Shown: positions 501 to 60,324 of the stretch, piece by piece
Layout of the letters: the number at the start of each line of letters is the position of its first letter
Position numbering within the stretch: position 1 is the stretch's first letter
Origin: Klebsiella phage phi_KPN_H2
Direction: 5' to 3' (one strand)
Sequence record: OQ267593.1
DNA length: 60,324 nucleotides
The notes under the pieces: generated by a model
Databases searched by the model: none
What the model was told of the DNA's origin: nothing
The model's input: the letters and a program-made list of their open reading frames with translations, nothing else
Made by a program: the position numbers and the translations under genes

Positions 501-1427
501 TCAACCCCGCTGCATATCTGTATAGAATTGCATAATCACATCGTCTGGTACAGCATCAAAATCACACTCAGAGTTCATCATCATGGCGAACGGTCGAACG
601 TATTCGCGGATCTCCTGTGTTACACCCATCGCATTAAACGGCGTGCCTGTACCTTCATAATGCTCTGTCAGTGTCACCATTGTTTCCAGCACATCAGAAG
701 GCCATTCCCGATCGATATGGTTGTGTAGCCAGTTTTCCGTGATGTTGTACCCGGTAACGTTCCGGCGCAGGGTGTACAGCGCGTTGTTGAAGTTCCCGCA
801 CATGGTTTCAAACCGTTTCCAGACGTCATAACCATAACGGATCACTGCATCCTTATGACTCATTACCCGTGGTGATCCGTCGCCCTGGGACACTGGTAAA
901 CCGTTCTGGATCACGTCATCCATAAAGTTCAGAACATCCGGGTACCAGCCGTTATCGATCCGGTTCAGTACCCATGATTCAGTGACCCGGCGATTCAGTG
1001 ACCCGGCGTTACGCAGCACATCAACTGCCTTAAACGTCCCGCCGCAGATATCCCTGAAACGTTCCCAGACGTCATAGCCGTAGATCACCCGTTCAACTTC
1101 TTTATCCATCATCCGCAACTGCTGAAAATAATTATCGCTGAACCGACGATGAGGAAGCGCCGCACGCAGCATATCAACACTGACCGTTTTGTTCAGTACG
1201 ATTTCTGCTTTCGGTGTTTGCGCCGGGATGACCACGGGGACCAGATCCAGTTCCCCGCCCGTTACCGTAGTAAGGATTAAATTTAAAGTTTCTGCCCGTG
1301 GTAACCGTTTCCCGGTCATCCATTCTGTGAACCGACCCCTGTTTACGCTGCAACCCATCATTTTTAGATAACTTACTGCGTTGTCTGCCGATCCAAAATG
1401 ACTGGCGAATTTTTCAAACAAGTTCAT
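501..1427 (-). CDS. hypothetical protein with an internal tandem domain duplication (YGYDVW[EK]RF...NWL..ID..WP.DVL repeated)
   Basis: 308-aa ORF. SD AAGGTG lies upstream of the ATG at 1427. Two roughly 75-aa repeats are visible in the translation. Confidence 0.6.
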   Translation of the reverse strand: MNLFEKFASHFGSADNAVSYLKMMGCSVNRGRFTEWMTGKRLPRAETLNLILTTVTGGELDLVPVVIPAQTPKAEIVLNKTVSVDMLRAALPHRRFSDNYFQQLRMMDKEVERVIYGYDVWERFRDICGGTFKAVDVLRNAGSLNRRVTESWVLNRIDNGWYPDVLNFMDDVIQNGLPVSQGDGSPRVMSHKDAVIRYGYDVWKRFETMCGNFNNALYTLRRNVTGYNITENWLHNHIDREWPSDVLETMVTLTEHYEGTGTPFNAMGVTQEIREYVRPFAMMMNSECDFDAVPDDVIMQFYTDMQRG

Positions 1428-1499
1428 GTTGTTTCACCTTACCAGATATATAACGAGAACTTTACGCCTTATATGAAACAAGGTCAACTCTTATATGCA

Positions 1500-1760
1500 A
1501 CAGTTTCAAAGTTGGCCTTGTTTACGCTGGTAAGGTGAAACAGAAAAGTTGTTACATCTGGTAAGCTGAAACAAAGATCTATGTAAACCATACAAGCACA
1601 TTTGGTAAGCTGTAACTAAAATCCTTATTTATTAATAACTTACTACTTTATAACATAGATAACATAGATAACATAGATAATATAAAAAAGTATAAACCCT
1701 ATAAAGATAGGCTAGTTAAACTGGTAAGCTGTAACAAGGTAAACTAGGAGGGATTTAAAA
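1500..1760. repeat. AT-rich non-coding region with four direct repeats of CTGGTAAG(C/G)TG(T/A)AAC and (CATAGATAA)x3
   Basis: GGTAAGGTGAAACAG at about 1521, GGTAAGCTGAAACAA at about 1561, GGTAAGCTGTAAC at about 1604 and 1721; CATAGATAACATAGATAACATAGATAA at about 1657-1683. Confidence 0.7.
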
Positions 1761-7758: not shown

Positions 7759-7820
7759 CCAATACCAGCTACGATAACCCGTGGTAAACTGTACAGAACT
7801 GTTGGAAACGGAACCTTACA

Positions 7821-9584
7821 ATGATTAAATTCACTGGTAACATTCACAAGTACCCGCGCTGGCGGGACGCTTACGCAGAGGACGAACGGATCTGGCGCAA
7901 GGGTGAACAACGACCTGATTACCGTCAGTGTTACCTTGACCGTATCAACCTGTTAAACCGTATGCGCACGGATCGGGCGATTGTCCCGATACTGAAAAAA
8001 TATTATGAAACTAACCCGGTGGCGTTCATCCTCGACTGGGCGTTTACTTATGACCCGCGTAACGTTGGTACGGAATACCCGCCGAATATGCCGTTCTGCC
8101 TATTTGAGCGCCAGATCGATATGATTCAGTTCGTTTATGAAGCGCTCGAAGATAAGGAGAAAGGGTTATGGGAAAAATCCCGCGACTATGGCGCAACGTG
8201 GGTAGCCTGTGGTTTATCCGTGTGGGCCTGGCTTTATCGTCCTGGTTCGTCGGTAGGTTGGGGATCGCGTAAAGAAACACTGGTCGATAAACTGGGGGAT
8301 CCTGACAGCATATTTGAAAAAATCAGGCAGATTATCCGCGCTTTACCACCTGAATTACGCCCGGTTGGATACCGTGAAAAAGATCACCTGACGTTCATGA
8401 AATGTATTAACCCGGAAAACGGATCGACGATAACTGGTGAGGCAGGGGATAATATTGGGCGCGGTGGTCGTAAGTCGATTTATTTTCTGGATGAGGCTGC
8501 ACACGTTGATCGCCCTGAACTGATCGAAGCATCGTTATCAGCTAACACCAACGTTCGTATCGATATCAGTTCTGTTAATGGTGTCGGTAACGTTTTTTAC
8601 CGTAATCGTAAAGCAGGTCTGGAATGGGAACCAGGTAAAAAGATCCCCCGTGGTAAATTGCGTGTCATGGTTCTGGACTGGCGCGATCACCCGGCGAAAA
8701 ATGATGAATGGTACGAACGGGAAAAGAAATCATTTGCTGAAAAAGGTCTGCAACATATTTTCGCACAGGAAGTTGACCGCGATTACGCCGCAGCAGTTCA
8801 GGGCGTGCTGATTAAAGCTGACTGGGTGCGTGCTGCGTTTGATGCGTTCCGCGATGTGGAATGGCGTAAAGCAAATGGTCTGCTCACTCCACACGGTAAA
8901 CGTGTTGCCGGACAGGATGCCGCAGATGGCGGTGAAGATGCGAGCGCCCTGGCGATAATGCACGGCGTATTTATAACCTACCTGCAGCTTGACCACCGTA
9001 GCGCGGAACTGGCAGCACCTGGAATGCTGCTTAACGCGAACGTGCAACAGTGCGATGAATACTGGTATGAATCGATCGGTGTCGGTACAGGCGTAAAAGT
9101 AGCGGCGCACAATATGAAGTCAACGTTGCGGTTCACGGCTAAACCCTGGGTGCCAAACGCTAAAGTTGTGGATCCGTTGGGCGATATCATCGCAGGTACG
9201 AAGCCGGGCGATAAGGATCGAAAATGTAACCGGGATTATTTCCGTGATTATAAGGCCCAGTCATCATGGGCGCTGCGTATGCGTTTTAAACGAATTTACG
9301 AATGGTACAGGGAAGGTAAACCGCAGGATCCTGATGAGATTATTCTCATAGACCCAGAAATGGAAAACGCGCAACGTCTGGAGGCAGAATTAAGTCAACC
9401 AACGTATTCAAGTAACGGTGCGGGTAAAATCGTAATTGATAAAGCACCAAACGGTACTAAATCACCAAACCTGTTCGACGCCGTTGTTATCGCATCATCG
9501 CCGAAACGCGTAATGGTTGAGGAAGAAGGATTTACCGGAAATGTAAACCCTATTGGAACACCAGAATACGGAAGTATTTTCTAA
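7821..9584 (+). CDS. terL: terminase large subunit
   Basis: 587 aa. Walker-B-like IYFLDEAAHV is followed by a C-terminal nuclease-like region. It is the first gene of the morphogenesis module. Confidence 0.75.
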   Translation: MIKFTGNIHKYPRWRDAYAEDERIWRKGEQRPDYRQCYLDRINLLNRMRTDRAIVPILKKYYETNPVAFILDWAFTYDPRNVGTEYPPNMPFCLFERQIDMIQFVYEALEDKEKGLWEKSRDYGATWVACGLSVWAWLYRPGSSVGWGSRKETLVDKLGDPDSIFEKIRQIIRALPPELRPVGYREKDHLTFMKCINPENGSTITGEAGDNIGRGGRKSIYFLDEAAHVDRPELIEASLSANTNVRIDISSVNGVGNVFYRNRKAGLEWEPGKKIPRGKLRVMVLDWRDHPAKNDEWYEREKKSFAEKGLQHIFAQEVDRDYAAAVQGVLIKADWVRAAFDAFRDVEWRKANGLLTPHGKRVAGQDAADGGEDASALAIMHGVFITYLQLDHRSAELAAPGMLLNANVQQCDEYWYESIGVGTGVKVAAHNMKSTLRFTAKPWVPNAKVVDPLGDIIAGTKPGDKDRKCNRDYFRDYKAQSSWALRMRFKRIYEWYREGKPQDPDEIILIDPEMENAQRLEAELSQPTYSSNGAGKIVIDKAPNGTKSPNLFDAVVIASSPKRVMVEEEGFTGNVNPIGTPEYGSIF

Positions 9585-9589
9585 TGAAC

Positions 9590-9616
9590 AACCCCGGTTT
9601 ACTCCGGGGTTTTTTC
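9590..9616 (+). terminator. rho-independent terminator after terL
   Basis: AACCCCGG-TTTACT-CCGGGGTT followed by TTTTTT. Confidence 0.65.
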
Positions 9617-10780: not shown

Positions 10781-10830
10781 CCCCGTGCAAAACTAACCTG
10801 TCTGATATAACATACGTTAAGAATAAACCC

Positions 10831-12201
10831 GTGGAGCCTGTGAAGATGGCAGATGACCAATTTGAACAACTAGCCGTTGCCGGATACAGTCGCACAGGCA
10901 ACCAGGTTAACGATGACTTTTTACCTAAACTCAACGGTAAACAGGGTCGTCGTATCCTTCGCCAGATGGCGGAGAACGATGAAACGATTGGTGGTGTATT
11001 GTTCGCCATGAACAGCGTTTACCGTTCCGTACAGTGGATTTTTGACCCATCAGACAAGAACGATCCGCAAGCTGTTAAATACGCTGAATGGCTGCAAAAC
11101 ACCATTGAAAACCAGATGGGCGATCCGCAGGGTGCGTTACCTGATGACACCTGGTCAGCATTCGTTCAGACCTGGACCGACACCGATGTTTTCGGCTGGG
11201 GTTGGTATGACGTATGGGTTAAAGATTTACCAGATGGTTCCGTGGGTATCGCCCGTCTGGTTCCGGTTGCTGCTGAAACGCTCGACGGCTGGGAAATTGA
11301 AGAACCGACAGGTTATGTCACTGGTATTTACCAGCGTCAACCGTCAACCAATATCAGTAAACTGATCCCCCGGTCAAGATCGCTACACCTGATTTCATCA
11401 CCGAACAAAGGTAACCCGGAAGGTTTATCACTGCTGCGCACCGCCTATCGTCCGTGGTATTACAAAAAAGTACAGCTTGAGATCGAAGCAATTCTGGCAG
11501 AGCGCGGAACAGGTTTCCCGGTCATCACAGTTAATAGCGATATTAAAAATGCTGCGAACGATCTGACCATCCCGGAAGAAAAACGTAAAGCAGCACAGGC
11601 GATGATTGATAACTTTGAAACTATCGTTGCCAATATTAAGCGCAATGAACAGTCTGGTCTGGTTATTTACTCAAAACCCTATGTCAACGGCTTTGACAGT
11701 GAGACAGGCGTTACCACATATGGTGGTGAGCAACAGGTTAAACTGGAATTCCTGACCCCTGAACAGTCTAATGCCGTGGATATCGACCGGACAATCAAAC
11801 GTCTGGATACCAGTATTGCTCGTGCATTGCTGGCTGACTTCATGTTTTTTGGTACAGGTGGGAATACAGGCAACCAGGCAAATCTGGGAAGCCGTACAGA
11901 ACTGTGGATCCGTGCAATGCAGTCTCGCATTGACAGCAACGTTGAATGTATTAACCGCCAGTTAATCCCGCAACTGTGGACGTTAAACGCGTTCCCTTCA
12001 GAATACAAACCAACGTTACGTGCTGGCTCAATCAGTAAAGACAGTATCGAAACATTGACCACTGCGCTTACGCGTCTGGCACAGGCTGGTGCGCCAGTGT
12101 TCCCGGACCCTGTACTTCAGGAGTTCGTGTATAAAGAAGCTGGGTTGCCGACAGCGGGTATTGATAAAACAGGCGAAGGTTTACCGTCTATTGAAGATTA
12201 A
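10831..12201 (+). CDS. portal protein (putative)
   Basis: 456-aa acidic protein at the position of the next large morphogenesis gene after terL. No specific motif was recognised. Confidence 0.55.
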   Translation: MEPVKMADDQFEQLAVAGYSRTGNQVNDDFLPKLNGKQGRRILRQMAENDETIGGVLFAMNSVYRSVQWIFDPSDKNDPQAVKYAEWLQNTIENQMGDPQGALPDDTWSAFVQTWTDTDVFGWGWYDVWVKDLPDGSVGIARLVPVAAETLDGWEIEEPTGYVTGIYQRQPSTNISKLIPRSRSLHLISSPNKGNPEGLSLLRTAYRPWYYKKVQLEIEAILAERGTGFPVITVNSDIKNAANDLTIPEEKRKAAQAMIDNFETIVANIKRNEQSGLVIYSKPYVNGFDSETGVTTYGGEQQVKLEFLTPEQSNAVDIDRTIKRLDTSIARALLADFMFFGTGGNTGNQANLGSRTELWIRAMQSRIDSNVECINRQLIPQLWTLNAFPSEYKPTLRAGSISKDSIETLTTALTRLAQAGAPVFPDPVLQEFVYKEAGLPTAGIDKTGEGLPSIED

Positions 12202-12227
12202 ATAAAAAGGGGTCTATAGCAGACCCC
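12200..12227 (-). terminator. rho-independent terminator for the leftward membrane-protein cassette (hairpin GGGGTCT-ATAGC-AGACCCC with a T-run on the minus strand)
   Basis: The A-tract at 12201-12208 reads as TTTTTATT downstream of the stem on the minus strand. Confidence 0.55.
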
Positions 12228-15815: not shown

Positions 15816-16769
15816 ATGAAAGACCCATACCCGGACATTGCTGATAAATATGACCTGCGGATCCGTGAAGCACTGAACCTCGTGTGGGAAAACGTGCGCC
15901 GTAGTGAGTCATTAGCTAACCTTGAGTACATTATTGAAACTCAGGGTGTTAGCGGGTTACTCCCCATTCTTGATACTCTTCCCGATGAGTTGAGCGCACA
16001 GTTACGGCCCGTTATCGAAAATGCGATAGCTGAATCAGGTCGTGTGGTCGTTCAGGTTTTGCCGAAAGCAGCGGTTACAGCACCCGTGGTTTTCAGCCTG
16101 GTTAATCCCCGTGTTGGTGCATACATCAATAACTACGTTGGACAGATGATCCGCGAAGTAAGCGATGAAACGGTAAAAGCGGTTCAGATTGCTGTCAATC
16201 AGGGTGTTATCACCGGGCGTAACCCGCGCCAGATTGCCCGTGATTTTCGTTCCAGTATCGGGTTAACCAGTCGCCAGGAACAAACTGTTCAACGGTTACG
16301 TGCTGCGCTTGAAAAAGGTGAAGCAGGCTATGTGAACAGTTTAACCACAGTTACTGACAGCGCAAAAAACGCTGTAAGCGCCGGGAAACTGTCTGAAAGC
16401 CAGATTGATAAGATTGTTGAACAAACCCGCTTACGCTACGTAAAACAACGCACAGAGACAATTGCACGTACTGAGTCATTACGTGCAACATCTGTTGGTC
16501 AGGATCTGGCAATTCGTGAAGGGCAGATCACCGGGGCTATCAGCAACGAACTGTTAAAGCGCTGGTTATATCGTCACGATACACGCACTCGTGATGCACA
16601 TATTAGCGCCGGGGAAACTAACGGGTGGATTCCAATGAACAGACCGTTTTCAACACCGTTAGGGCCGCTTATGTTCCCTCGTGACCCTAACGGAAGCGCA
16701 TCGAATACGATTAACTGCAGGTGCCGGGTACAGTACAGTTTGCCGGAAGATATCGGTTCACTGGGTTGA
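15816..16769 (+). CDS. head morphogenesis protein, Mu gpF / SPP1 gp7 family
   Basis: The C-terminal NCRCRV motif is typical of the Phage_Mu_F domain. Size and position fit. Confidence 0.65.
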   Translation: MKDPYPDIADKYDLRIREALNLVWENVRRSESLANLEYIIETQGVSGLLPILDTLPDELSAQLRPVIENAIAESGRVVVQVLPKAAVTAPVVFSLVNPRVGAYINNYVGQMIREVSDETVKAVQIAVNQGVITGRNPRQIARDFRSSIGLTSRQEQTVQRLRAALEKGEAGYVNSLTTVTDSAKNAVSAGKLSESQIDKIVEQTRLRYVKQRTETIARTESLRATSVGQDLAIREGQITGAISNELLKRWLYRHDTRTRDAHISAGETNGWIPMNRPFSTPLGPLMFPRDPNGSASNTINCRCRVQYSLPEDIGSLG

Positions 16770-17467: not shown

Positions 17468-17743
17468 TTACTCCTGCTTTTCACCACAGAACGGGCAATA
17501 AGACATTTTCACGTTAGTTTCTAATCGCGTGAAGTTCTTCGCCAGTTCGCCGTTTTTCTTCGGTGCACGATACGCCAGGCGATATTTCAGCATGACGTAC
17601 ATGTTCCCGGATGACAGCCCCAGACACTGGTTATCCCAGCCCACTTTGTCAAATATGTTGGTACTGACTTCTGCGCCCTGCGGCACTTTTTCCATCAGTC
17701 GTTGTTGAAGTTCGTCACCAAGTTTTTTCATGCATTCGCACAT
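17468..17743 (-). CDS. hypothetical protein (C-terminal CPFCG)
   Basis: 91-aa ORF. Confidence 0.45.
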   Translation of the reverse strand: MCECMKKLGDELQQRLMEKVPQGAEVSTNIFDKVGWDNQCLGLSSGNMYVMLKYRLAYRAPKKNGELAKNFTRLETNVKMSYCPFCGEKQE

Positions 17744-18039
17744 TACCAGCCACCTTTCTTTAAAAGAATACGTTTAGTTTCAGGGTGAGGATGACGGTAG
17801 TTAACCAGTTGTTCCGGCATACTCATAAATTTATTGTTTTTATCTTTGACCGTGACAAAACAGGAATGAACACCAAACGCACCAGTGTTGATTGTTTCGT
17901 CGTATTCGTGGAGAAGTTCGGCCATTTTTTCCTGCCACTCTTTTGGCATCTGCATCATAGCCACACGGGGCATAACAACAAACGCCGCATAAGATAAACC
18001 GAACCACCCGTGCAGGTCTTTTCGATCGTCATATTCCAT
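17743..18039 (-). CDS. hypothetical protein
   Basis: Track ORF 17743..18111 begins inside the conserved promoter. Start moved to the Met at 18039, which has an AAAGG SD. Confidence 0.45.
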   Translation of the reverse strand: MEYDDRKDLHGWFGLSYAAFVVMPRVAMMQMPKEWQEKMAELLHEYDETINTGAFGVHSCFVTVKDKNNKFMSMPEQLVNYRHPHPETKRILLKKGGW

Positions 18040-18101
18040 CGCCTTTACCTTTTCAGTTAAGCACCCGTTATTGGGTGTGATAACTATACCTTCCTGTCTG
18101 C

Positions 18102-18124
18102 AATCCGTCAAGAATTATTTTAAA
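18102..18124 (-). promoter_or_regulatory. conserved promoter element copy 7 (minus orientation)
   Basis: GCAATCCGTCAAGAATTATTTTAAA; drives leftward cassette 3. Confidence 0.6.
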
Positions 18125-18420
18125 TCTTCTTTCATCTTACCAAACTGGTAAGCCGTAACTCAGCGTCATAGATGACATAGATAGTATGAAAGAGTTATAC
18201 AGATCTGGTAAGCCGTAACATAGATTGCATAGTTTGCGCATACTTATTTTTAACAAATTTATCTTCTAACTTACTGTTTTTATTATCTTTTACATATTTA
18301 TCATAGATAGTATAGATTTATATAAGAATTATAAAAGTAAGGTAAGTAAGGGTTAGTAGGGTAAGATCTAAAAGATAAGGAAAACAGCATGAAATGTATG
18401 ATACTATGCACCCGTGGTTA
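18125..18420. repeat. second AT-rich non-coding region sharing CTGGTAAGCCGTAAC (x2) and CATAGAT motifs with 1500-1760
   Basis: CTGGTAAGCCGTAAC at about 18137 and about 18207; CATAGATGACATAGATAG and ATCATAGATAGTATAGAT; GGTAAG-rich stretch at 18340-18370. Confidence 0.7.
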
Positions 18421-18439
18421 ACTCGCGAGGAAACACCCA

Positions 18440-18850
18440 ATGATCGAAGTTAAAGTTAACAAGGTCGATCCACAGTTACGGATGGTTTTCGGCTGGGGTT
18501 CGATTTGTAAAAAACGGAATCAGGAAACGGGTCAGTTAGAAATTTACACTGACACCGATAACGAACAATTCCCTGAAGATGTAACGTTAAAAGCATGGCT
18601 GGATTTCATGAACGGCGATCAGCGGATCATGGATAACATGCATAACGAGCAACCCGTGGGCAAAGTGGTGTTCGCTTTTCCGATGACCGAAGATATCGCT
18701 GCAAGTTTTGGACTGGTTGAAAAACTGGATCAAACAGGCGTTATTGTTGGTACGCTGATCACCGACGATGACATTCTGAAAAAATTTCAGTCTGGCGAAT
18801 ATACCGGGTATAGTATCGGTGGAACTGCTTACTATGAGGACGTTGAATAA
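18440..18850 (+). CDS. head-assembly protein (possibly a prohead protease-related or decoration domain), hypothetical
   Basis: First gene after the second AT-rich repeat region. Coupled (TAATG) to the scaffold-like gene. Confidence 0.35.
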   Translation: MIEVKVNKVDPQLRMVFGWGSICKKRNQETGQLEIYTDTDNEQFPEDVTLKAWLDFMNGDQRIMDNMHNEQPVGKVVFAFPMTEDIAASFGLVEKLDQTGVIVGTLITDDDILKKFQSGEYTGYSIGGTAYYEDVE

Positions 18851-20106
18851 TGCGTACTGATGGCACTAACCATTTACGCCGGGCGCGGTCAATGAAAATT
18901 GGCTTTCTGTCCGGTGTGACCAAACCAGCGCATGAAGGCGCAAACGCCCTTATGCTTAAATCCCACGGTGAAACACCCGGCGAAGCCCTGCTGAAGTCTG
19001 CGTTTAGTGCGGCGCTTGCTGAACAGCAGCTGGAACAGCAGGTGAACCAGTTTCTTTCTAACTCATGGGTGCTTAATGAAGCGCTTCGCGAGTCAGCAGA
19101 GGATATTGCAAAAGACGATTCAGTTACTGATAAACAAGCAGCATTGCGTGACGCAGTAAATGAATATATTATAACAATGCAGCAGGCCGCTGGTATTTCG
19201 CTTAATAAAGCGAATGGTGGTAAAACAGAAGGTGGTGAAGTATTCCCGGCATCCGATTACGCTTATGTACCGGACTCGGAAAAACCTTCAACCTGGAAAC
19301 TTCGTTTAACCTCCACGCCCGGCGGAAAACCTGATTCACGTATTGTCGGTGCTGCACTGGCTGCATTAGGTCCAGGGTATCGCGGTAATAAGGTTGAAAT
19401 CCCTGAAGCTGATTTAGCAGGTGTGAAAAGTAAGGTTCGGGCCGCGTGGAAAGAATTGCACCCGGATCAAGAAATCCCCCAGGTTTTAAAAACGGCAGAG
19501 GAAATTGAAATGTCCGAACTGGAAAAATACAAAGCTCTGGCTGAGATGAGCGATACCCACAAGGCGTATCATGACGCTCTGCCTGAAACCGATCAGGAAG
19601 CGTTCCGTAAAATGGACGCAACCGCCCGTGACGCTCTGGTAGTTATGGCGAAACAGGCTGACGAATCTTTCACTACCGTAGCTGGTCAGGAAGTGAAAAA
19701 ATCCGTAGCTGGCGCGATGTATGACGTTCTGAAAACTCAGGACGAACAGATCCGCAAAGCACAAACCGAAGCGGCACTGGCGAAAGCTAAAGAAGTAGTG
19801 AATACCGACTATGCGCATATTCCGGGCGAAGTTGTTCAGAAAACCGCTATGGTTATGGCGCTGGATAAACTGCCGGAAGCAGATCGCAATTTCCTGGTAG
19901 AAAAACTGAAACAGGCCGATACCCTGTGGAAAGAGCGTAAAACGCCTGCCGCACCGAACGGTGGTAAAGGTTCTACTGCGTTTGAAGATCTGATCAGCGA
20001 ATACATGAAGAATAACCCAGGCAAAACCCGTGCACAGGCTATGCAAGCTGTTGCATCGACCAAAAAAGGCCAGGAAGTGATCGAAACCATGCGAGGTGAT
20101 GAATAA
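18850..20106 (+). CDS. scaffolding-like protein (A/E/K/Q-rich, predicted coiled coil)
   Basis: 418 aa with low-complexity helical composition, immediately upstream of the capsid genes. Confidence 0.5.
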   Translation: MRTDGTNHLRRARSMKIGFLSGVTKPAHEGANALMLKSHGETPGEALLKSAFSAALAEQQLEQQVNQFLSNSWVLNEALRESAEDIAKDDSVTDKQAALRDAVNEYIITMQQAAGISLNKANGGKTEGGEVFPASDYAYVPDSEKPSTWKLRLTSTPGGKPDSRIVGAALAALGPGYRGNKVEIPEADLAGVKSKVRAAWKELHPDQEIPQVLKTAEEIEMSELEKYKALAEMSDTHKAYHDALPETDQEAFRKMDATARDALVVMAKQADESFTTVAGQEVKKSVAGAMYDVLKTQDEQIRKAQTEAALAKAKEVVNTDYAHIPGEVVQKTAMVMALDKLPEADRNFLVEKLKQADTLWKERKTPAAPNGGKGSTAFEDLISEYMKNNPGKTRAQAMQAVASTKKGQEVIETMRGDE

Positions 20107-20513
20107 TGGCTACTAACAGCAAAATCTACTGGAACTACGAGCGCCCGACCCGTGCTGTTGCCAGCGTAGCGATCGCTGCTGGTGTTGGTCTGGTGCTTGA
20201 TACCAGTCTGGGCGACACCAACGCGTGCGTACCGAAATATAAACTTCCTGATGCTGGCGGTCGTATCGACGGTGTAGCACTGGACGATGTAGCGGCTAAT
20301 CAGTTCTTTGATCTGGTTAACGAAAAAGAAAAATTCGTTCCGGTTAAAGCGGCTGCGGCTTTCGGTGTCGGTGTTGAACTCGCAGTAACTGCCGCTGGTA
20401 AATTCCAGACTGCAACCACGGGTCAACTGGTCGTGGCAATTTCCCAGACCCAGGCCACCGCTGCGGATCAGGTTGTTACGGCTTTAGTCCGTGCGCCATA
20501 CGCTAAAGCATAA
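20106..20513 (+). CDS. head protein (possibly decoration/cement), hypothetical
   Basis: 135 aa, lying between the scaffold and the major capsid protein gene. Confidence 0.4.
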   Translation: MATNSKIYWNYERPTRAVASVAIAAGVGLVLDTSLGDTNACVPKYKLPDAGGRIDGVALDDVAANQFFDLVNEKEKFVPVKAAAAFGVGVELAVTAAGKFQTATTGQLVVAISQTQATAADQVVTALVRAPYAKA

Positions 20514-20528
20514 TCAGGAGCAAATCAG

Positions 20529-21548
20529 ATGAGCTATAAACAGAATTTCCGCGACGTTGGCGCCCCGGATCTATTCCTGTCCAACTTTTCAGTAGCCTAC
20601 TGGCAAGATACCTCTCGCTTTGTCGGTACTCGTTATTTTCCAGTAGTTCCGGTAACTCAGGCTGCAGGTAAGTATCTTACCTACCCGAAAGGTTATTTCG
20701 GTCGCCCGGTAAACTCGAAACGTGCTGAAGATGGTGTTGCTAACACGATCGGTTATAAAACCAAAAACCAGGGCTACACCGTCGATGACGATGCGATCCG
20801 TATTTTTATCTCTGATAAAAAACGTGCGAACGTCGCAAACGGTCAACAACTGGATATGGAAGCAACCGGTGTCGTTACCGACGCGCTGCTGATCAATAAA
20901 GAGATCGATTTCGTATCTAAGTTCCTGGTGCCTGGCAAGTGGGCTACCGATTATCAGGGTGTTGATGCAACACCGACTGGTAACCAGTTCCTGAAATGGT
21001 CTAACGCCAACTCTGATCCGATCGGTGATATCCTGTCACATCGTGTGGCGTTCTCTCTGGCTACTGGCGGTCGCCGCTGGAACAAGGCGCTGATGACGCT
21101 GGATGTGTACGATGCGCTGACCCGTAACCCGTCTGTAATTGACCGCATCAACGGCGCGTCAACCAGCCAGAATCCGGGTATTGTGACCCAACAGGCGCTT
21201 GCAGCACTGCTGGAAGTTGACGAAATCGAAATCATGCAATCCGTGGTTAACATGGCTGCTGACGGTCTGGAAGATGCCGAAGGTAACCCGCTGTCCGACT
21301 TCCAGTTTGCGGCAGAAGGTGTACTGATGCTGAACTACGTCGAACCGACCGTAGGTAACATGAAACCGATTTCGGCTGTAACCTTTGCCTGGAATGAGTT
21401 TGCAAGTCTGGGTATTGATAATGGCCCGTCTATCCGTACTTATCCGGGTGTTGAAGGTCGTCGCGGTAACTTTGTTGAAGCAGAGTTTGCGATCGATACT
21501 GAAATGGTTGCACCGGATATGGGTATTCTGTTCTACGACGCTGTTTAA
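20529..21548 (+). CDS. major capsid protein (HK97-fold, putative)
   Basis: 339 aa at the canonical position. Followed by a terminator hairpin at 21571-21598. Confidence 0.65.
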   Translation: MSYKQNFRDVGAPDLFLSNFSVAYWQDTSRFVGTRYFPVVPVTQAAGKYLTYPKGYFGRPVNSKRAEDGVANTIGYKTKNQGYTVDDDAIRIFISDKKRANVANGQQLDMEATGVVTDALLINKEIDFVSKFLVPGKWATDYQGVDATPTGNQFLKWSNANSDPIGDILSHRVAFSLATGGRRWNKALMTLDVYDALTRNPSVIDRINGASTSQNPGIVTQQALAALLEVDEIEIMQSVVNMAADGLEDAEGNPLSDFQFAAEGVLMLNYVEPTVGNMKPISAVTFAWNEFASLGIDNGPSIRTYPGVEGRRGNFVEAEFAIDTEMVAPDMGILFYDAV

Positions 21549-21610: not shown

Positions 21611-22057
21611 ATGAAAAAGAACGAATTTGATCCGTCAGCCACATATCGGTTTACACGCCCTATGAAATGGAACGGTAAATATGTTGGTACGGGCACTTTA
21701 TTACCCGAAGATGGTACACCGATCGGAATCCTGCGTTCCCTGTTTAAGATGCGTCAGATTGAACTGGCTGACGGTTCCGAACCGGAACAGCAACCGGAAC
21801 AGCAACCGGAACAGCAACCGGAACAGCAACCGGAACAGCAACCGGAACAGCAACCGGAACAGCAACCGGAACAGCAACCGGAACAGCAACCGGAACAGCA
21901 ACCGGAACAGCCTGGCGCAGTAGCTGAAATCCGTAATGAAGGTTCTGGCTGGTACAACGTCTACATGGGCGGGATGCTGATCAGCGAGAAGAAATTACGT
22001 AAAGATGACGCTGAAAAATGGTGTGAAGAAAAAGGTTTGACTTACAATATTTCTTAA
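21611..22057 (+). CDS. protein with an (EQQP)n repeat linker, hypothetical head-associated
   Basis: ATG at 21611 has a GAGG SD. Contains 10.75 tandem copies of CCGGAACAGCAA at 21783-21911. Confidence 0.5.
   Translation: MKKNEFDPSATYRFTRPMKWNGKYVGTGTLLPEDGTPIGILRSLFKMRQIELADGSEPEQQPEQQPEQQPEQQPEQQPEQQPEQQPEQQPEQQPEQQPEQPGAVAEIRNEGSGWYNVYMGGMLISEKKLRKDDAEKWCEEKGLTYNIS
21783..21911 (+). repeat. 12-bp tandem repeat (CCGGAACAGCAA) x 10.75 encoding (PEQQ)n
   Basis: Counted directly in the sequence. Confidence 0.9.
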
Positions 22058-22368: not shown

Positions 22369-22456
22369 GGATAGTTGGCTGAGAGGCCGAAAGCGATCGG
22401 TTGCTAACCGATAGATCGGAAACGGTCCACAGGTTCGAATCCTGTACTATCCGCCA
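22369..22456 (+). tRNA. tRNA-Ser (anticodon GCU), class II with a long variable arm, CCA encoded
   Basis: Hand-folded: acceptor GGATAGT / ACTATCC; D-stem GCT / AGC; anticodon stem ATCGG / CCGAT with loop TTGCTAA (U33-GCU-A37); variable-arm hairpin GATCG-GAAA-CGGTC; T-arm ACAGG-TTCGAAT-CCTGT; discriminator G followed by CCA. Confidence 0.8.
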
Positions 22457-43509: not shown

Positions 43510-44430
43510 TCAGTAACCGTTACCCGTGAGAAACCCTGGCGCGGGAGTGGTCATAACCATGTAACCCTGATCAATCATTGCCTGATCTGTCCAGCCACCT
43601 GCAACAAACTGTTCATAAGTTGCACCACCCGCTTTTTCAGTCATCACTTTCACAGGTGCTGCCGCTGGTGTAGGCGCTGCTACAGGTGCTGCCGCTGGTG
43701 TAGGCGCTGCTACAGGTGCTGCCGCTGGTGTAGGCGCTGCTACAGGTGCTGCCGCTGGTGTAGGCGCTGCTACAGGTGCTGCCGCTGGTGTAGGCGCTGG
43801 TGTAGGCGCTGCTACAGGTGTAGGCGCTGCGCCGATCGCAGTAGCGCCTGCTGGCATTGCTGGTACAGCACCAAACACAGAAGCAGGAGCCGGACCAGAA
43901 ATGATTTCTTCACCTGCGTATAGCAGTTGCGCCATTTCCATATTGATATACATCCCCGCCTGATTGCCAGTACGACCATTAGGAGACGTTGAGCCGCTAA
44001 TACGGTAATAGTAGCCTTTTTTGGCCTGATTTTTATCGATCACAGGCTGGAATTGTGCGTTATACAACGGGCAAGCATCGATCGCCACGTTGCGTGAAAA
44101 TCCGATTACCCAGTGACCAGGGTAACCCGTTTTTCCAGCATGTTTTGGATCGTCACCATTCGTGATTTTCCATGCAAAAGTTGGTTGTTGCGTTTCACCA
44201 TTTACATAGTGTGCGCCAGCAGCTTTCAAAATTGCCTGGAATACCACACCCAGTTCACCTTGTTCTTCCCACCAGTTCGCGGCGGTTTTAGGAAACGCCA
44301 GGCCAACCCACCAGTTGTATTTTTCAGGTGCGAGCGGTTTGTTTTCATGATCGCTGGTATTCATATCAAAGAACGAGCCACCAACTAGACGACCAACCGG
44401 AGTGACGAATTTTTCAACAATCTTAGCCAT
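43510..44430 (-). CDS. T7 gp2.5-like / DUF2815-like ssDNA-binding protein candidate with (PAAAPVAAPT)n linker
   Basis: Sits between the Cas4-like nuclease and the polymerase, as in many phage replication modules. Contains five 30-bp tandem repeats at 43651-43800. Confidence 0.35.
   Translation of the reverse strand: MAKIVEKFVTPVGRLVGGSFFDMNTSDHENKPLAPEKYNWWVGLAFPKTAANWWEEQGELGVVFQAILKAAGAHYVNGETQQPTFAWKITNGDDPKHAGKTGYPGHWVIGFSRNVAIDACPLYNAQFQPVIDKNQAKKGYYYRISGSTSPNGRTGNQAGMYINMEMAQLLYAGEEIISGPAPASVFGAVPAMPAGATAIGAAPTPVAAPTPAPTPAAAPVAAPTPAAAPVAAPTPAAAPVAAPTPAAAPVAAPTPAAAPVKVMTEKAGGATYEQFVAGGWTDQAMIDQGYMVMTTPAPGFLTGNGY
43651..43800 (-). repeat. 30-bp tandem repeat x5 encoding (PAAAPVAAPT)n
   Basis: TACAGGTGCTGCCGCTGGTGTAGGCGCTGC appears five times on the + strand. 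Confidence 0.85.
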
Positions 44431-49516: not shown

Positions 49517-50080
49517 ATGATGGAGAGAAAATCACTTCCATCACAGGATTACATAAAAAAATGTTTCGTATACAACGAAGATACTGGTGATCTTGTTTGG
49601 AAATACAGACCGCAAAACCATTTTAAAAATTCCGTTGGTTTTAAAAACTTCAACAATCAGAACGTGGGTAAAATCGCGGGTTCAATAGTTACAACCAAAG
49701 AGGGTAATCGTTACAGAAGTGTTAAGATAAATGGTGTTTTTTATTTTGCGCACAGATTGGTTTTCAAGCTCTTATACAATGAAGAACCTGATTACATCGA
49801 TCATTTAAATGGGAACGGCATTGATAACCGTAAAGTGAATTTAGAAAAATCAACTGCTCATAAAAACAATAAAAATCAAACACTTAATAAAAGAAATAAA
49901 GAAAATAAAATGGGTGTTTATTGGCGTGAGGACCACGGTCGTTTTTGTGCGTCAATTGGTTATAAAGGAAAACAAATTCACATAGGTTCTTTTATGAGCA
50001 AAAAAGAAGCCGTAAAGGCCCGTGAAAAAGCTGAAAAAGAACTCTTATTTTCTTCGAATCACGGGAGACTTAGAACATGA
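49517..50080 (+). CDS. HNH homing endonuclease with AP2 DNA-binding domain
   Basis: HNH core HRLVFKLLYNEEP...DHLNGNGIDNR and C-terminal AP2-like GVYWREDHGRFCASIGYKGKQIHIGSF. Confidence 0.75.
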   Translation: MMERKSLPSQDYIKKCFVYNEDTGDLVWKYRPQNHFKNSVGFKNFNNQNVGKIAGSIVTTKEGNRYRSVKINGVFYFAHRLVFKLLYNEEPDYIDHLNGNGIDNRKVNLEKSTAHKNNKNQTLNKRNKENKMGVYWREDHGRFCASIGYKGKQIHIGSFMSKKEAVKAREKAEKELLFSSNHGRLRT

Positions 50081-52431
50081 AAGGTCTGCTGAACCGTAAA
50101 CAGTGGATTTGTTGGAGGCTGGAACACGTTGAAGGTCGCCCAAAACCTACCAAAGTACCTTACAGCCCAATTCACGGGTATAAGGCCAGTACAACAAACC
50201 CTGCTGACTGGTCTGACTATCATACTGCGCTGGGTATGGCGCAAATGTATGGTATGTCAGGTGTCGGTTTCGTGTTCACTGAAAACGATCCTTATTTTTT
50301 CATTGACGTCGATAACTGTCTGGTAGACCAGGCTACCGCTACATGGTCGCCACTGGCGCATGAATTTGTAAACCGTTTCCCCGGCGCTTATACGGAAGTA
50401 AGCCAGTCAGGAACAGGTTTACATATCATCTGTGCCTACACCAGTTTACCGGAAGGTTTCAACAGCCTTAACGATCAGAAAACCGGACTTGAAATGTACT
50501 GGCGCGATCGTTTTGTCGCCATGACGTTAACAGGGAACGGTGAAGTTGACGTTGATTATACACAGGGCGTTCATGACTCAATCGCCCGGTATGGTCGTAT
50601 TCGTTCCGATCGTTCAGCACACTGGACCAGTGCACCCTGTGACGAATGGTCCGGGCCGGAAGATGATGAAGAACTGATCGCAATGGCGTTAAAGTCGTCA
50701 AGTGCGGCTTCAGTTTTTGGGAATAAAGCATCGTTTGCGGATCTGTGGACTGCGAATGTTGAAAAACTGTCTGTCAGTTACGCCAGTGATCAGGGAAAAG
50801 ACTACAACGCGTCAGCCGCTGATGCTGCTTTGTGTTCACACCTTGCTTTCTGGACGGGTAAAAACTGTGAACGAATGGAGCGGTTATTTAATAAATCCGC
50901 GCTGGTTCGTGGTAAATGGACCGATCGCCAGGATTACCGGGAAACAACCATATTAGGCGCGGTTGAACGTTGCGATACCGTTTATCGTGCGCAACCAGCA
51001 CTGACACAGGAACTGATTAATGCTGTTACGCCAGCGCCTACAGTAGCTGTTACTGGTGGTGTTCCGGCATATATGACTATCAGACCTGGTGAAGGTGCAT
51101 ATGGTGCTAACCATACCGTTAACGCGTCAACGTTCGTTAATAACTATTATCCGAACAACACGCTTATTTTTGTACAGCAGCAACCGTACCGCTTTAACGG
51201 TCGCGTCTGGGAGCGGGTGACAGAAGATGAATTAAAACATCAGTTATCTATGGCAATGCTGGCGAGCGAACCAAAAGCTGATGTGATTAATGGCACATAT
51301 AAAGTTTTAAGCTATCTGTTTACCCGTGCCGATCGTGAGTTAGGCACCTGGCCGGGCGTTGATGTTTCACACTATATCGTGTGTCAAAACGGGATCCTTG
51401 ACGTTCACACGAGAAAATGTGAACCGCACAATCCTGATTTCTTCACTACCAGTATTTTACCATACAGTTACGATCCGTTTGCACAGGCACCCGTTTTTCA
51501 GGAATTTCTGAATACGACACTGGAAGGCGATCAGGAACGTATTGCACTGTTGCAGGAGTGGTTGGGTTATATGCTTGTTAACTCCTATGACTATCAGAAA
51601 GCAATGCTGATGATCGGTGCACCACGTTCCGGTAAAGGTACAATCGGCCAGATTATACAGGCGCTGGTAGGTGAAGAAGCGTATGCAGGGATCACGCTCG
51701 AAGGTCTGGCGAATGATGCAATACTTGAAACTGTTCTGGATAAATCAGTGTTGTTTATCGGTGATGCTCACAGTGTTTCCGGGCCTGACCGTAACAGGAT
51801 CCTTGACCGCTTTAAGTCAATAACTGGTGCTGATGCGATACCTGTTAACCGTAAATATAAAGGTGCGTGGAACGGTCGTTTACCAGGTCGTATGACACTT
51901 GCCGCGAACAATATTCCGGCTTTTGCGGATGATTCCGGGGCAATGGCTAACCGTCTGCTGATCCTGCCGTTTAACGTGTCGTTCCTCAATCGTGAAGATA
52001 TCACCTTAAAATCACGACTGATGAAGGAATTACCGGGGATCTGCAACTGGGCTATCGAAGGTCTGGAACGTTTACGTAAAAATAACCGCTTCACAGAACC
52101 TGCAGCGAGTATCGCAGAACGTCAGGAAATCATGGACCAGCAGGCACCGTTAATGGCTTTTGTGCGTGACTGCTGCGAACTGCTGCCTGATAGCGCTACT
52201 CACACTGAAGAACTTTTCTGTAGATATAAAATGTGGAAGATGCAGGAGGGAGGCGCAACCATGACTAAAACCGCATTTAGTCGGGCGTTTAAGTCAATGC
52301 TTCGTGGGCGAGTGGTTAAAGATGTGGTATCAGTCAATGGTCAGCGTGCTAACGGCTTCAGGGGTGTCCGTTTACTCTCTTTCCAGTCAGCGGCTAATGT
52401 GCTGCCGTTCCCGCCTGTCAGTAATAGTTAA
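50077..52431 (+). CDS. primase-helicase (bifunctional prim-pol N-terminal domain plus D5/P4-type SF3 helicase)
   Basis: Walker A GAPRSGKGT and Walker B ...LFIGDA in the C-terminal half. The N-terminal half is about 400 aa. Confidence 0.7.
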   Translation: MKGLLNRKQWICWRLEHVEGRPKPTKVPYSPIHGYKASTTNPADWSDYHTALGMAQMYGMSGVGFVFTENDPYFFIDVDNCLVDQATATWSPLAHEFVNRFPGAYTEVSQSGTGLHIICAYTSLPEGFNSLNDQKTGLEMYWRDRFVAMTLTGNGEVDVDYTQGVHDSIARYGRIRSDRSAHWTSAPCDEWSGPEDDEELIAMALKSSSAASVFGNKASFADLWTANVEKLSVSYASDQGKDYNASAADAALCSHLAFWTGKNCERMERLFNKSALVRGKWTDRQDYRETTILGAVERCDTVYRAQPALTQELINAVTPAPTVAVTGGVPAYMTIRPGEGAYGANHTVNASTFVNNYYPNNTLIFVQQQPYRFNGRVWERVTEDELKHQLSMAMLASEPKADVINGTYKVLSYLFTRADRELGTWPGVDVSHYIVCQNGILDVHTRKCEPHNPDFFTTSILPYSYDPFAQAPVFQEFLNTTLEGDQERIALLQEWLGYMLVNSYDYQKAMLMIGAPRSGKGTIGQIIQALVGEEAYAGITLEGLANDAILETVLDKSVLFIGDAHSVSGPDRNRILDRFKSITGADAIPVNRKYKGAWNGRLPGRMTLAANNIPAFADDSGAMANRLLILPFNVSFLNREDITLKSRLMKELPGICNWAIEGLERLRKNNRFTEPAASIAERQEIMDQQAPLMAFVRDCCELLPDSATHTEELFCRYKMWKMQEGGATMTKTAFSRAFKSMLRGRVVKDVVSVNGQRANGFRGVRLLSFQSAANVLPFPPVSNS

Positions 52432-56750: not shown

Positions 56751-57509
56751 ATGTCCAACATCCATTCACTACGCAAACTGTCAGAAGCCGACAAAGAAAA
56801 CGTAAAACGCGCCAACTCATTCATTATCGACCCGCGCATTATCCAGATTGAACCGGGTTTTAACCCGCGTGGCATGTTCACTGATAACTACTGGGAACAA
56901 CCGGATACCCTGGCGCACATCGAACAGTTCGTTAAAGCGTATCGCAACGGCGACTTCGTACCACCTATCGCGGTGAAAGTTATCGATGGTGTGCCGTTCG
57001 TGCGCGACGGTGAGCACCGCTTACGGGCGCTGCGTAAACTGATTGCTGAGGGTGTACCGTTCCAGCGTGTTGAAGTCGTTGAAGCGTCTGGTGACGAACT
57101 GGCGCAGGCTAAAACCAACTTTAACGCTAACAACGGTCGCCAGTGGTCAGCCGTCGAACGCGCTGTTCATTACGGACGGTTTAAATCCTACGGTATGACC
57201 GTTGAAGAGATCGCCCACGAGGTCGGTAAAACCGTACAGCATGTTTACCAGATGCTGACCATCCTTGAAATGCCGCTGGAAATGAAGCGCCGGATTCAGG
57301 AAGGGGCGATTAGCGCATCAGCCGCGATCAACCTGTTTAAAAACCCGGAACGCGCCACCGTTAAACGCCCTCCTGCAAAACTGATCCGTTCGGCTGTTGA
57401 AGCCATCCGTGGTGAATGGTCGGTCACACGGCAGGAAGGCGGTAAAGTTCTGGTTGAACTGACCGCTGAACAGTTCGAAGCACTGAAGGCACTGAAAGAC
57501 CATGAATAA
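56751..57509 (+). CDS. ParB-like nuclease domain protein
   Basis: ParB-box-like DGEHRLRA after IQIEPGFNPR. Preceded by the consensus promoter TTGACA-17-CATAAT. Confidence 0.65.
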   Translation: MSNIHSLRKLSEADKENVKRANSFIIDPRIIQIEPGFNPRGMFTDNYWEQPDTLAHIEQFVKAYRNGDFVPPIAVKVIDGVPFVRDGEHRLRALRKLIAEGVPFQRVEVVEASGDELAQAKTNFNANNGRQWSAVERAVHYGRFKSYGMTVEEIAHEVGKTVQHVYQMLTILEMPLEMKRRIQEGAISASAAINLFKNPERATVKRPPAKLIRSAVEAIRGEWSVTRQEGGKVLVELTAEQFEALKALKDHE

Positions 57510-60052: not shown

Positions 60053-60324
60053 TCTATTTCAATGTGAAAATTGTGGGTGTGTTGAAAACACAGCGCTTTC
60101 AGCCCAGGGTTTTACAAACTCGTTTCAGGCGTTGTTTGACTGGTCGTATGCCCAAAACCGTGCGGGTAAACGGTTGTGTTCCGCGTGTGGGCCTGTTAAA
60201 TATCGTGATGGTAATCCGACACCATATGGTAAATGGCATAACGTATTTGCTCGCCAGTATTTACAGTTAGGTAAGTTTAAAACAAACAGTCAGGGTAATC
60301 TGCAACATATTGAAACAGGTGATA
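60048..60324 (+). CDS. 5' portion of the zinc-ribbon gene that continues at 3..170 (wraps across the window ends)
   Basis: ATG at 60048. The frame stays open to the window end and continues in phase at the window start. Confidence 0.5.
   Translation, partial: MSLFQCENCGCVENTALSAQGFTNSFQALFDWSYAQNRAGKRLCSACGPVKYRDGNPTPYGKWHNVFARQYLQLGKFKTNSQGNLQHIETGD
60205..60324. repeat. exact 120-bp terminal redundancy (identical to 1..120)
   Basis: Base-by-base comparison. Confidence 0.95.

Follow-up and report, generated by a model that had tools for sequence, protein, structure and literature searches.

Introduction

Bacillus phage SPP1 carries two origin regions, oriL and oriR, about 13 kb apart, each of which combines direct repeats with an AT-rich unwinding element and both of which are bound by gp38; oriL is located inside the binder gene, and oriR amid moron genes, with gene 7 on one side and the scaffold/capsid genes on the other (PMC6316719). 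Here we describe a similarly organised pair of non-coding regions, islands 1 and 2, in a stretch of 60,324 nucleotides from Klebsiella phage phi_KPN_H2 (sequence record OQ267593.1), referred to as the window. Its relatives include vB_KpnS-Carvaje (~98% nucleotide identity) and the Salmonella phages Sasha and 9NA (~80%). Our main subject is island 2 (18112-18439), directly in front of the head-tail operon, which is probably a replication-origin-type or late-gene control element and not a plain promoter.

The likeness to SPP1 is one of layout. Two similarly organised regions occur in one pac-type siphophage genome and a single phage protein, in the window a protein of 308 amino acids (aa), is proposed as their binder. 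One region lies at the binder gene, while the other occupies the relative position of island 2, among moron genes between a gp7-type gene and the scaffold/capsid genes, and in both phages the A+T-rich islands are the strongest compositional bias of the genome. The window phage differs in having a Gram-negative host, in placing island 1 beside the binder gene and not inside it as oriL is, and in fronting late operons directly with both islands. Its 308-aa candidate shows no sequence similarity to gp38 and has a predicted Cro-like helix-turn-helix (HTH) and repeated modules. The replisomes also differ, a PrimPol-SF3 helicase and family-A polymerase standing against the DnaB-type helicase with loader and the host polymerases of SPP1.

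Origins of staphylococcal pathogenicity islands (SaPIs) with self-loading Rep or PriRep5 helicases have iterons around an AT-rich core; these iterons measure 5-6 bp, follow closely after rep and are recognised by the C-terminal winged helix of the helicase itself (PMC9371898). The window shares with SaPIs short element-specific iteron-like sites around an AT-rich region, an encoded primase-SF3 helicase and a site sequence that varies between related elements. Its sites, however, are 14-15 bp long and far from the primase gene, there are two islands and not one origin, and the C-terminus of its primase-helicase does not covary with the sites. In phage lambda, the DNA-binding N-terminal domain of O is variable and co-evolves with dyad-symmetric iterons that adjoin an AT-rich tract and lie inside the O gene at a single origin. 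In P4, ori and crr are two separated clusters of the same 8-bp repeat, both needed in cis and bound by the primase-helicase alpha itself. Neither O nor alpha showed detectable homology to the 308-aa protein.

Results

A repeated 15-bp site is confined to two islands

Island 2 contains two exact copies of the 15-mer CTGGTAAGCCGTAAC on the plus strand, 60 bp apart, and a weak inverted copy:

18145-18159, plus strand: site A, exact CTGGTAAGCCGTAAC (26.0 bits)
18205-18219, plus strand: site B, exact CTGGTAAGCCGTAAC followed by ATAGATTGCATAG (27.9 bits); a 22-nt direct repeat at a spacing of 60
18127-18145, minus strand: weak inverted copy, GTTTGGTAAGATGAAAGAA (13.5 bits), forming with site A the dyad CTTACCA-AAC-TGGTAAG

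The first-pass annotation had noticed the repeat but had placed its copies at about 18137 and 18207, 70 bp apart; these positions were off by 8 and 2 bp. Allowing up to three mismatches, the window held eight matches against 1.3 expected, a number reached in none of 100 shuffles. Five of these lay in 1431-1735, two in island 2 and one, with three mismatches, in the portal gene (11884). A weight-matrix scan of the 60 kb revealed only seven strong sites, all in island 1 (1428-1880) or island 2; the matrix was built from these same seven copies, so their scores of 23.7-30.2 bits are circular. The best match outside the training set was the inverted copy, whose score was at the level of the shuffled-genome maximum (mean 13.0), and all remaining matches, at 11.2 bits or less, fell inside the shuffled-genome range. 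Random occurrence of the motif in coding sequence, which the same annotation had named as evidence against a regulatory role, was not seen: the portal-gene match, the only coding one, scored within shuffle noise. The scan of the window gave no sites near terL, the portal gene or the gp7-like gene. A terL-proximal sequence, TGGTAAACTGTAC, was considered as a weak site and rejected, being absent from the matrix matches.

Islands 1 and 2 are colinear paralogues

The remaining features of island 2 were located as follows:

18112-18127, minus strand: UP-like A+T-rich tract, upstream of a leftward promoter
18167-18182, plus strand: CATAGATGACATAGAT, two CATAGAT units 9 bp apart, after site A
18240-18339: least stable 100 bp of the genome (z = 5.1, rank 1), 15% G+C, rich in T on its left side and in A on its right
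18340-18364, plus strand: purine-rich block with GGTAAG/GTAAG half-site-like repeats (AGGTAAGTAAGGGTTAGTAGGGTAA), from the island alignment; not significant alone
18365-18409, plus strand: most conserved block, GATCTAAAAGATAAGGAAAACAG ... TATGAT (18397-18402) / TACTAT (18402-18407), near-invariant in the window, Carvaje, Sasha and 9NA
18410-18439, plus strand: invariant leader with ACCCGTGG (18410-18417), the palindrome CTCGCGAG and the Shine-Dalgarno sequence GAGGAA (18427-18432), before the ATG at 18440

The least stable tract includes ATAGATAGT / ATAGATTTA repeats with a 9-bp period at 18302-18320, and its tandem ATAGAWA 9-mers are kept in Sasha, 9NA and KarinMuster. Judged by its composition, 18240-18339 is a candidate DNA-unwinding or bendable element. 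Conservation is uneven across the island: in the window, Carvaje, Sasha and 9NA the 3' 100 bp are nearly invariant and the repeat-bearing 5' part is divergent.

The paralogous partner, island 1, contains the following:

1428-1880: island 1, directly 5' of terS (1881-2516)
1431-1445, minus strand: site
1527-1541, 1558-1572, 1602-1616 and 1721-1735, plus strand: sites
1610-1709: AT-rich tract, rank 2 among the least stable segments, with three tandem ATAACATAG 9-mers at 1650-1685
1756-1790: TAAAAG...CTATGAT block

The two islands are paralogues and aligned colinearly, with the same modules in the same order. These modules are a leftward-facing site; rightward-facing sites with CATAGAT units; TAACTTACT and a T-rich tract; ATAGATA repeats with a 9-bp period; a purine-rich block; a GATYTAAAAG..AGGRAA..TATG.AA.CTATGAT block, represented in island 2 by 18365-18409; and a leader, which belongs to terS in island 1 and to the head operon in island 2. 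The purine-rich block of island 2 sits where island 1 has a full site (1721-1735), and eight of the 13 genomic copies of CATAGAT fall in the two islands. The earlier pairing of 18125-18420 with 1440-1880 on a shared motif was borne out, and the likeness extends beyond that motif. The accompanying description of the repeats as directly upstream of the first head gene held in part: the gene at 18440 does open the head operon and encodes a PF14550 domain, but the repeats are 221-295 bp 5' of its ATG and not adjacent to it.

The islands are also set apart from the rest of the genome. They are the two largest gaps free of open reading frames (ORFs) of at least 50 aa (453 bp for island 1 and 328 bp for island 2), and the two least stable segments at window sizes of 100, 200 and 300 bp (z = 4.1-5.1; next <=3.4). 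In all genomes examined, both lie in the same orientation immediately 5' of late operons, that of terS and that of the head genes. The sequence AGATCT is enriched in them, with three of 12 genomic sites (1575-1580, 18201-18206 and 18364-18369) in 1.3% of the sequence; every GATC of the islands is part of an AGATCT, and island 2 carries an unchanged AAGATCTAAAAGATAAGGAAA block in the window, Sasha and 9NA.

Searches for a coding or RNA function of island 2 were negative. Its only small ORFs were TTG/GTG ORFs of 26-40 aa, of low plausibility. A search of the whole window against Rfam at the gathering threshold gave no match in island 2, a search of the island itself with E relaxed to 1 was equally empty, and a tRNA scan was negative there too. 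Folding of the island, its leader and a long A/T-rich inverted repeat (18274-18298 / 18363-18387) as RNA or DNA was no better than that of shuffles (z-scores of -0.28 and 0.64). A structured non-coding RNA was not supported, there being neither an Rfam match nor a significant fold. Together with the absence of a credible ORF, these data argue that island 2 works as duplex DNA.

The site is replaced in parallel in both islands of related phages

In every relative examined, a gap of ~400 bp precedes the XkdF-like gene that opens the head operon, and terS is separated from a divergently transcribed gene by 450-780 bp; the island layout recurs in 11 related genomes. Sites were compared in a cross-matrix of the 11 genomes with both islands, which belong to three clades. 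The site occurs in three forms, or dialects, listed here with the N-terminal type of the 308-aa protein or its homologue:

Dialect K: site TGGTAAGCCGTAAC; N-terminal type SVN/NVN-[RK]-GRFTEW
Dialect N: site GTGTTATCTGAAAC; N-terminal type QITTTRYREW and relatives
Dialect S: site GCTAATACACGTTG; N-terminal type KVTVGRYNQW

Island 1 held a single dialect per genome (3-9 matches against <=0.08 expected in the 11 genomes), and island 2, 16 kb away, held the same dialect as island 1 in 10 of the 11. In 9NA the site is GTGTTATNTGNAAC, and all ten matches at up to one mismatch fell in its two islands (eight and two), against 0.47 expected; several of these sites form head-to-head dyads 17 bp apart. 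At least 10 sites are distributed over 500 bp of island 1 of 9NA, to the left and right of the AT tract. As in the window, no DNA of the 9NA genome is less stable than its two islands, the tract orthologous to that of island 2 ranking first. Overall, site number was 5-13 in island 1 and 2-3 in island 2. Because the site was replaced in parallel in both islands, its sequence appears to be set by a trans-acting specificity factor. That the repeats behave as binding sites for such a factor is supported by their restriction to two islands and by the dialect that both share within a clade.

The exception was Sasha (NC_047786), in which an S-type protein and an S-type island 1 (L013/L014) are accompanied by K/N-type sites in island 2 (L003, 2567-2965). 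Island 2 of Sasha is almost identical to that of SP069, and by this comparison appears to have arisen by natural recombination, which left the phage with mismatched sites. Yet another dialect, GTGACACAGTGAAAC, flanks an AT-rich tract in L025, a contig of more distant origin. Among the matches listed, those of the L025 repeat in viral contigs were scattered chance matches only, and a TerS-based scan did not recover L025. A 3' half-site YTGWAAC conserved across the family was considered and rejected; it holds for the K, N and L025 types, but the S type (GCTAATRCACGTTG) departs from it. Helical phasing was likewise rejected, as the two island-2 sites are 60, 63, 67, 69 or 70 bp apart among relatives and thus not phase-locked.

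The same comparison bears on the simplest alternative, that the islands have no dedicated function and are A+T-rich spacers left by an old duplication, with repeats kept by descent. The islands are indeed paralogous and the spacing of the island-2 pair drifts, as such spacers might. We nonetheless regard this explanation as very unlikely. Sites of one clade agree exactly or almost exactly while the DNA between them diverges, different clades have replaced the site sequence in parallel in both islands, and the architecture is kept across phages at ~80% DNA identity or lower. The islands are, moreover, the only sizeable non-coding gaps in a tightly packed genome.

In E. coli phages of the Nonanavirus type (KarinMuster, L004 1550-1995; also L020, L021, L023 and L024), island 2 is separated from the XkdF-like gene by an inserted early-type promoter, AAAATAATTCTTGACGGATTAC, and an additional ORF of 115 aa. 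This ORF contains a variable tandem repeat, GTTGAACCAGTAACGACTGCT, in the KarinMuster-type phages.

A divergently transcribed gene encodes the best candidate binder

The gene that diverges from island 1 was examined as a source of the specificity factor:

501-1427, minus strand: gene of the 308-aa candidate site-binding protein (phrog_25538; 9NA gp84 / Sasha gp81 family)

Proteins of this family vary in their N-terminal domain, which is followed by a conserved segment, LPHRRF, by the DVWxRFExMCGNF module in one or two copies and by a C-terminal region that is again conserved. No other sizeable protein shared with 9NA is as divergent as the 308-aa protein (41% identity). The DVWxRFExMCGNF...W module is duplicated in the Klebsiella clade (two copies, 308-318 aa) and single in 9NA, Sasha and KarinMuster; the Sasha and KarinMuster homologues carry a PVARAEP tandem repeat of variable length.

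Neither the whole 308-aa protein nor its separate domains gave a significant Pfam or PDB-sequence match, and a model of the whole protein (pTM 0.31) had no fold match below E = 1. The N-terminal 60 residues, however, were modelled by AlphaFold2 as four helices with a pLDDT of 91.9. The top Foldseek match of residues 1-58 was Xfaso-1 Cro (probability 0.96, TM 0.69, rmsd 2.2), and the other top matches, ImmR, Aca7, CylR2 and TP901-1 CI, are likewise all Cro/CI-type DNA-binding domains. All had E >=0.47, which is weak but expected for so small a domain; a Pfam HTH_3 match was obtained at E = 0.19 only, and in the Sasha homologue only. The N-terminal domain is thus modelled as Cro-like and HTH-like. 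Its type tracked the dialect of island 1 in all 11 genomes and that of island 2 in 10 of them, in a sample of only three clades in which the gene and island 1 are physically linked. From this covariation the 308-aa protein is the best candidate for the protein that would bind the sites. The inverted site at 1431-1445 overlaps the ribosome-binding site of its gene, an arrangement that suggests autoregulation, as in autoregulated initiator genes.

Two other phage proteins were considered as readers of the site. The TerS proteins of the window and 9NA share 94% identity and differ at just three of the first 80 residues, and the primase-helicase is 92% identical throughout, its C-terminus included. 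Both were excluded, as reader of the site and of the half-site, respectively, because they are conserved while the 5' half-site is completely different (TGGTAAG... versus GTGTTAT...). The near-identity of TerS also weighs against packaging, according to which the repeats would be small-terminase sites like SPP1 pacL/pacR or the R-sites of lambda cosB, with island 2 a second or relic pac-like site. Island 1 lies immediately 5' of terS, several database records of the phage group start their linear sequence inside or beside it, and 9NA is a pac-type headful packager (PMC4153490). Island 2, on the other hand, is 16 kb from terS, and we give packaging scant credence.

The predicted fold raises a further alternative, in which the sites are operators of a Cro-like repressor acting on its own gene at island 1 and on the leftward early operon (17.4-18.1 kb) at island 2, the AT tracts being incidental. 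In addition to the Cro/CI-like fold, the overlap of a site with the ribosome-binding site and leader of the binder gene, the abutment of sites A and B on the UP-like tract of the leftward promoter, and the dyad arrangement of sites are all consistent with this model. Yet about 10 other copies of the early-promoter family have no sites, so that general early shut-off is not the role, and neither the colinear architecture of both islands (AT tract, 9-mers and TAAAAG block) nor the large number of sites in island 1 of 9NA is explained. Simple repression is accordingly an unlikely account of the islands.

A predicted leftward promoter and a possible rightward one at the edges of island 2

A strong candidate promoter lies at the left edge of island 2, and further members of its family occur elsewhere in the window:

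18083-18127, minus strand: leftward early-type sigma-70 promoter, -35 TTGACG (18106-18111), 17-nt spacer, -10 TATAGT (18083-18088), 10 of 12 consensus matches
2993, 5622, 7745, 10767, 12693, 14210, 18110 and 46450, minus strand: -35 positions of the promoter family
52441 and 56689, plus strand: -35 positions of the promoter family
41540 (plus strand) and 48319 (minus strand): degenerate family copies against the local gene direction, which look like relics

The leftward promoter is one of about 12 near-identical copies (AAAATAATTCTTGACGGATTRC, 17 nt, TAnnnT, with an A+T-rich upstream tract) of a family that would drive small-gene clusters interleaved with virion genes. From its position it would drive the small minus-strand genes at 17468-18042, presumably early. 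No consensus rightward promoter was found upstream of 18440, the only match, TTTACA-18-TAGATT, agreeing at 9 of 12 positions, a chance rate. The conserved TATGAT at 18397-18402 is -10-like, with GATAAG at the -35 position, and its block is a candidate -35-less promoter of the head operon.

These results bear on the first-pass annotation, which had read the region as a divergent regulatory hub with a leftward promoter at 18102. That promoter was confirmed, with its A+T-rich upstream tract, as were the divergent gap and sites that look like those of a trans-acting factor; the rightward arm of the hub lacks a consensus promoter, the scan being at chance. The combination of repeats and AT tract favours an origin-type element no less than a transcriptional hub, because the repeats flank the least stable DNA, a cognate-looking binder gene lies nearby, and SPP1 oriL/oriR provide a precedent.

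The -35-less block underlies the most substantial alternative, that the islands are control regions of the late operons. The repeats would be enhancer-like activator sites for the 308-aa HTH protein, which would switch on the TATGAT promoters of the terS and head-tail operons via a bendable AT tract; the adjacent leftward promoters may be damped at the same time. We consider this possible, although we doubt it. In every genome examined both islands are immediately 5' of terS and the head operon and share their orientation, no early-type promoter serves either operon in the window, and the most conserved part of island 2 is the promoter-like block with its paralogue in island 1. The Cro/CI-type fold of the candidate binder is typical of transcription regulators, and dyad-arranged sites suit a dimeric one. 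Relative to the start of the leftward promoter, sites A and B occupy about -53 to -143, the repeats being only 50-140 bp from that promoter, and one island-1 site lies over the leader of the binder gene.

Late promoters of this kind are familiar from P2 Ogr, Mu C and P1 Lpa, where a -10-like element without a -35 precedes virion operons and a phage-encoded DNA-binding protein acts as the switch; activator sites of this type lie within about 60 bp of the start, before every late operon. The repeats of the window differ, being 190-265 bp upstream of TATGAT, absent from terL and the portal gene, and arranged in arrays of up to 10 or more. Such a distance from the putative -10 is far for a sigma-70 activator, and no sigma-54-type promoter was visible on reading the sequence. 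The same site does not precede all late units: terL, which has its own terminator, the portal gene and the gp7-like gene have none. Late control is also at odds with the 10 or more sites over 500 bp in island 1 of 9NA, more than a single promoter needs, with the early-type promoter and extra gene that KarinMuster-type phages place between island 2 and the head operon, and with the tolerance of Sasha for mismatched island-2 sites.

A short element of the head-operon leader, ACCCGTGG, was found nine times in the window against 1.8 expected (7777-7784, 10827-10834 and 18410-18417; also 865, 10589 onwards, 16082, 18652, 20416 onwards and 41056). Three copies lie 12-37 nt 5' of the terL, portal and head-operon starts, each right after a -35-less TAnnAT-like hexamer, and island 1 carries the variant ACCGGGTGG near 1831. 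Judging from these positions, ACCCGTGG may be a late-promoter discriminator or leader element.

Genome context

Bases 1-120 of the window recur exactly at 60205-60324, so that the window is a circularly closed assembly with a unique length of 60204 bp. By sequence it is the genome of a circular Klebsiella siphophage of the 9NA/Sasha/Carvaje group; it is 100% identical to Klebsiella phages phi_270/e270 over the 2 kb queried, and its gene order agrees with that of 9NA. The virion genes referred to above, with assignments from 18440 onwards based on domain searches and the annotations of relatives where stated, are:

1881-2516: terS, directly downstream of island 1
7821-9584: terL
about 10846-12201: portal gene
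15816-16769: SPP1-gp7-like head gene
18440 onwards, plus strand: head-tail operon, beginning with the first gene after island 2
18440-18850, plus strand: first gene of the head-tail operon, XkdF-like serine protease domain (PF14550; domain search and relatives' annotations)
18850-20106, plus strand: genes next in the operon
20106-20513, plus strand: scaffold-like gene (domain search and relatives' annotations)
20529-21548, plus strand: major capsid gene (domain search and relatives' annotations)

Small minus-strand gene clusters are set between the left-arm virion genes, with one copy of the promoter family (AAAATAATTCTTGACGGATTRC-N-TAnnnT) per cluster. Strong intrinsic-terminator hairpins occur after terL (9590-9611, plus strand) and at the boundaries of terS (2608-2621) and the portal gene (12209-12227) with early clusters. 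These hairpins suggest that the left-arm virion genes form separate small transcription units among converging early units; terL is probably one such unit, since it has its own terminator. The head-tail operon region also contains a tRNA-Ser gene (anticodon GCT; 22369-22456, plus strand). In-frame tandem repeats occur in two coding sequences, a 12-nt unit, AACCGGAACAGC, in about 11 copies at 21756-21935 in the ORF after the major capsid gene, and a 30-nt (12+18) unit at 43622-43872 within a gp2.5-like single-stranded-DNA-binding protein gene on the minus strand.

The replisome is phage-encoded and includes a 784-aa primase-helicase (50077-52431, plus strand) with PrimPol (NrS-1-like HBD), D5_N and SF3 parts, which matches SaPI PriRep5 (7OLA) at E = 4e-35 and is accompanied by a family-A polymerase. 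An HNH endonuclease gene (49517-50080, plus strand) lies immediately 5' of the primase-helicase gene. Further right is a gene for a ParB-like protein (56751-57509, plus strand), for which no counterpart was found in the part of 9NA compared.

Discussion

The account we lean towards, while rating it at somewhat less than an even chance, is that island 2 is an iteron and unwinding-element region like SPP1 oriL/oriR that also houses the head-operon promoter. The 15-mers and the weak inverted copy would be iteron- or operator-type sites for a phage-specific protein, and the 308-aa protein, bound to the repeats of both islands, would organise a nucleoprotein complex in which the adjacent AT-rich tract is opened or bent. 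The main site would be island 1, which has 5-13 sites, lies beside the binder gene and places one site over that gene's ribosome-binding site. Island 2, with 2-3 sites between the gp7-like head gene and small moron genes on one side and the scaffold/capsid genes on the other, would be secondary. The right-hand 75 bp of island 2 would act as promoter and leader of the head operon and its left edge as the leftward early promoter; because island 2 carries both, transcription and origin function would overlap there. Unwinding of the tracts and the starting or stalling of replication at the islands are predicted from this organisation. The pair would then represent a known kind of element, iterons and an unwinding element with a cognate binder in the two-site layout of SPP1, here in an unstudied phage group and with an uncharacterised binder family.

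Several observations weigh against an origin-type role. The 308-aa protein has no similarity to known initiator families (gp38, O, Rep or DnaD-like), and its fold matches have E-values of 0.5 or worse. Its covariation with the sites rests on three clades and is confounded at island 1 by physical linkage, and Sasha combines an S-type protein and island 1 with K/N-type sites in island 2; given this mismatch, the island-2 sites may be dispensable or read by something else. SF3 primase-helicases usually recognise the origin through their own C-terminal domain, which in these phages shows no covariation with the sites. No enrichment was seen for the consensus sites of DnaA and IHF. GC skew was dropped as an origin marker since it follows transcription switches; its raw minimum is at 18145 and its detrended minimum at 45.7 kb, the latter a plausible alternative position for the origin. 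Finally, a purely transcriptional role explains equally well that both islands front late operons and have promoter-like ends.

The origin-type and late-control readings are not mutually exclusive, as island 2 also contains promoters. The two could be joined in a coupled switch, in which one multi-HTH protein bridges the origin-like island 1 and the head-operon island 2; we think such bridging improbable. Within this scheme, late promoters lacking a -35 would be licensed once the origin fires, or a fork arrives, and the AT tract opens, a step to which we likewise assign little likelihood. If true, the scheme would mean replication-coupled late transcription in a siphophage dependent on host RNA polymerase, run by the uncharacterised family phrog_25538.

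Phages of the 9NA-like group, which infect Salmonella, E. coli and Klebsiella, are used in phage-therapy and biocontrol collections. In their genomes an anonymous A+T-rich gap becomes a defined, testable system, made up of a 14-15-bp site that comes in three natural dialects, a pair of islands in each genome and a candidate binder identified by name. If the islands are an origin pair, the two-origin design of SPP1 would extend to Gram-negative virulent siphophages with a PrimPol-SF3 replisome; if they are a late switch, the missing late regulator of the 9NA-like group would be identified. On either reading, the dialects provide ready material for specificity swaps, and Sasha a natural mismatch control.

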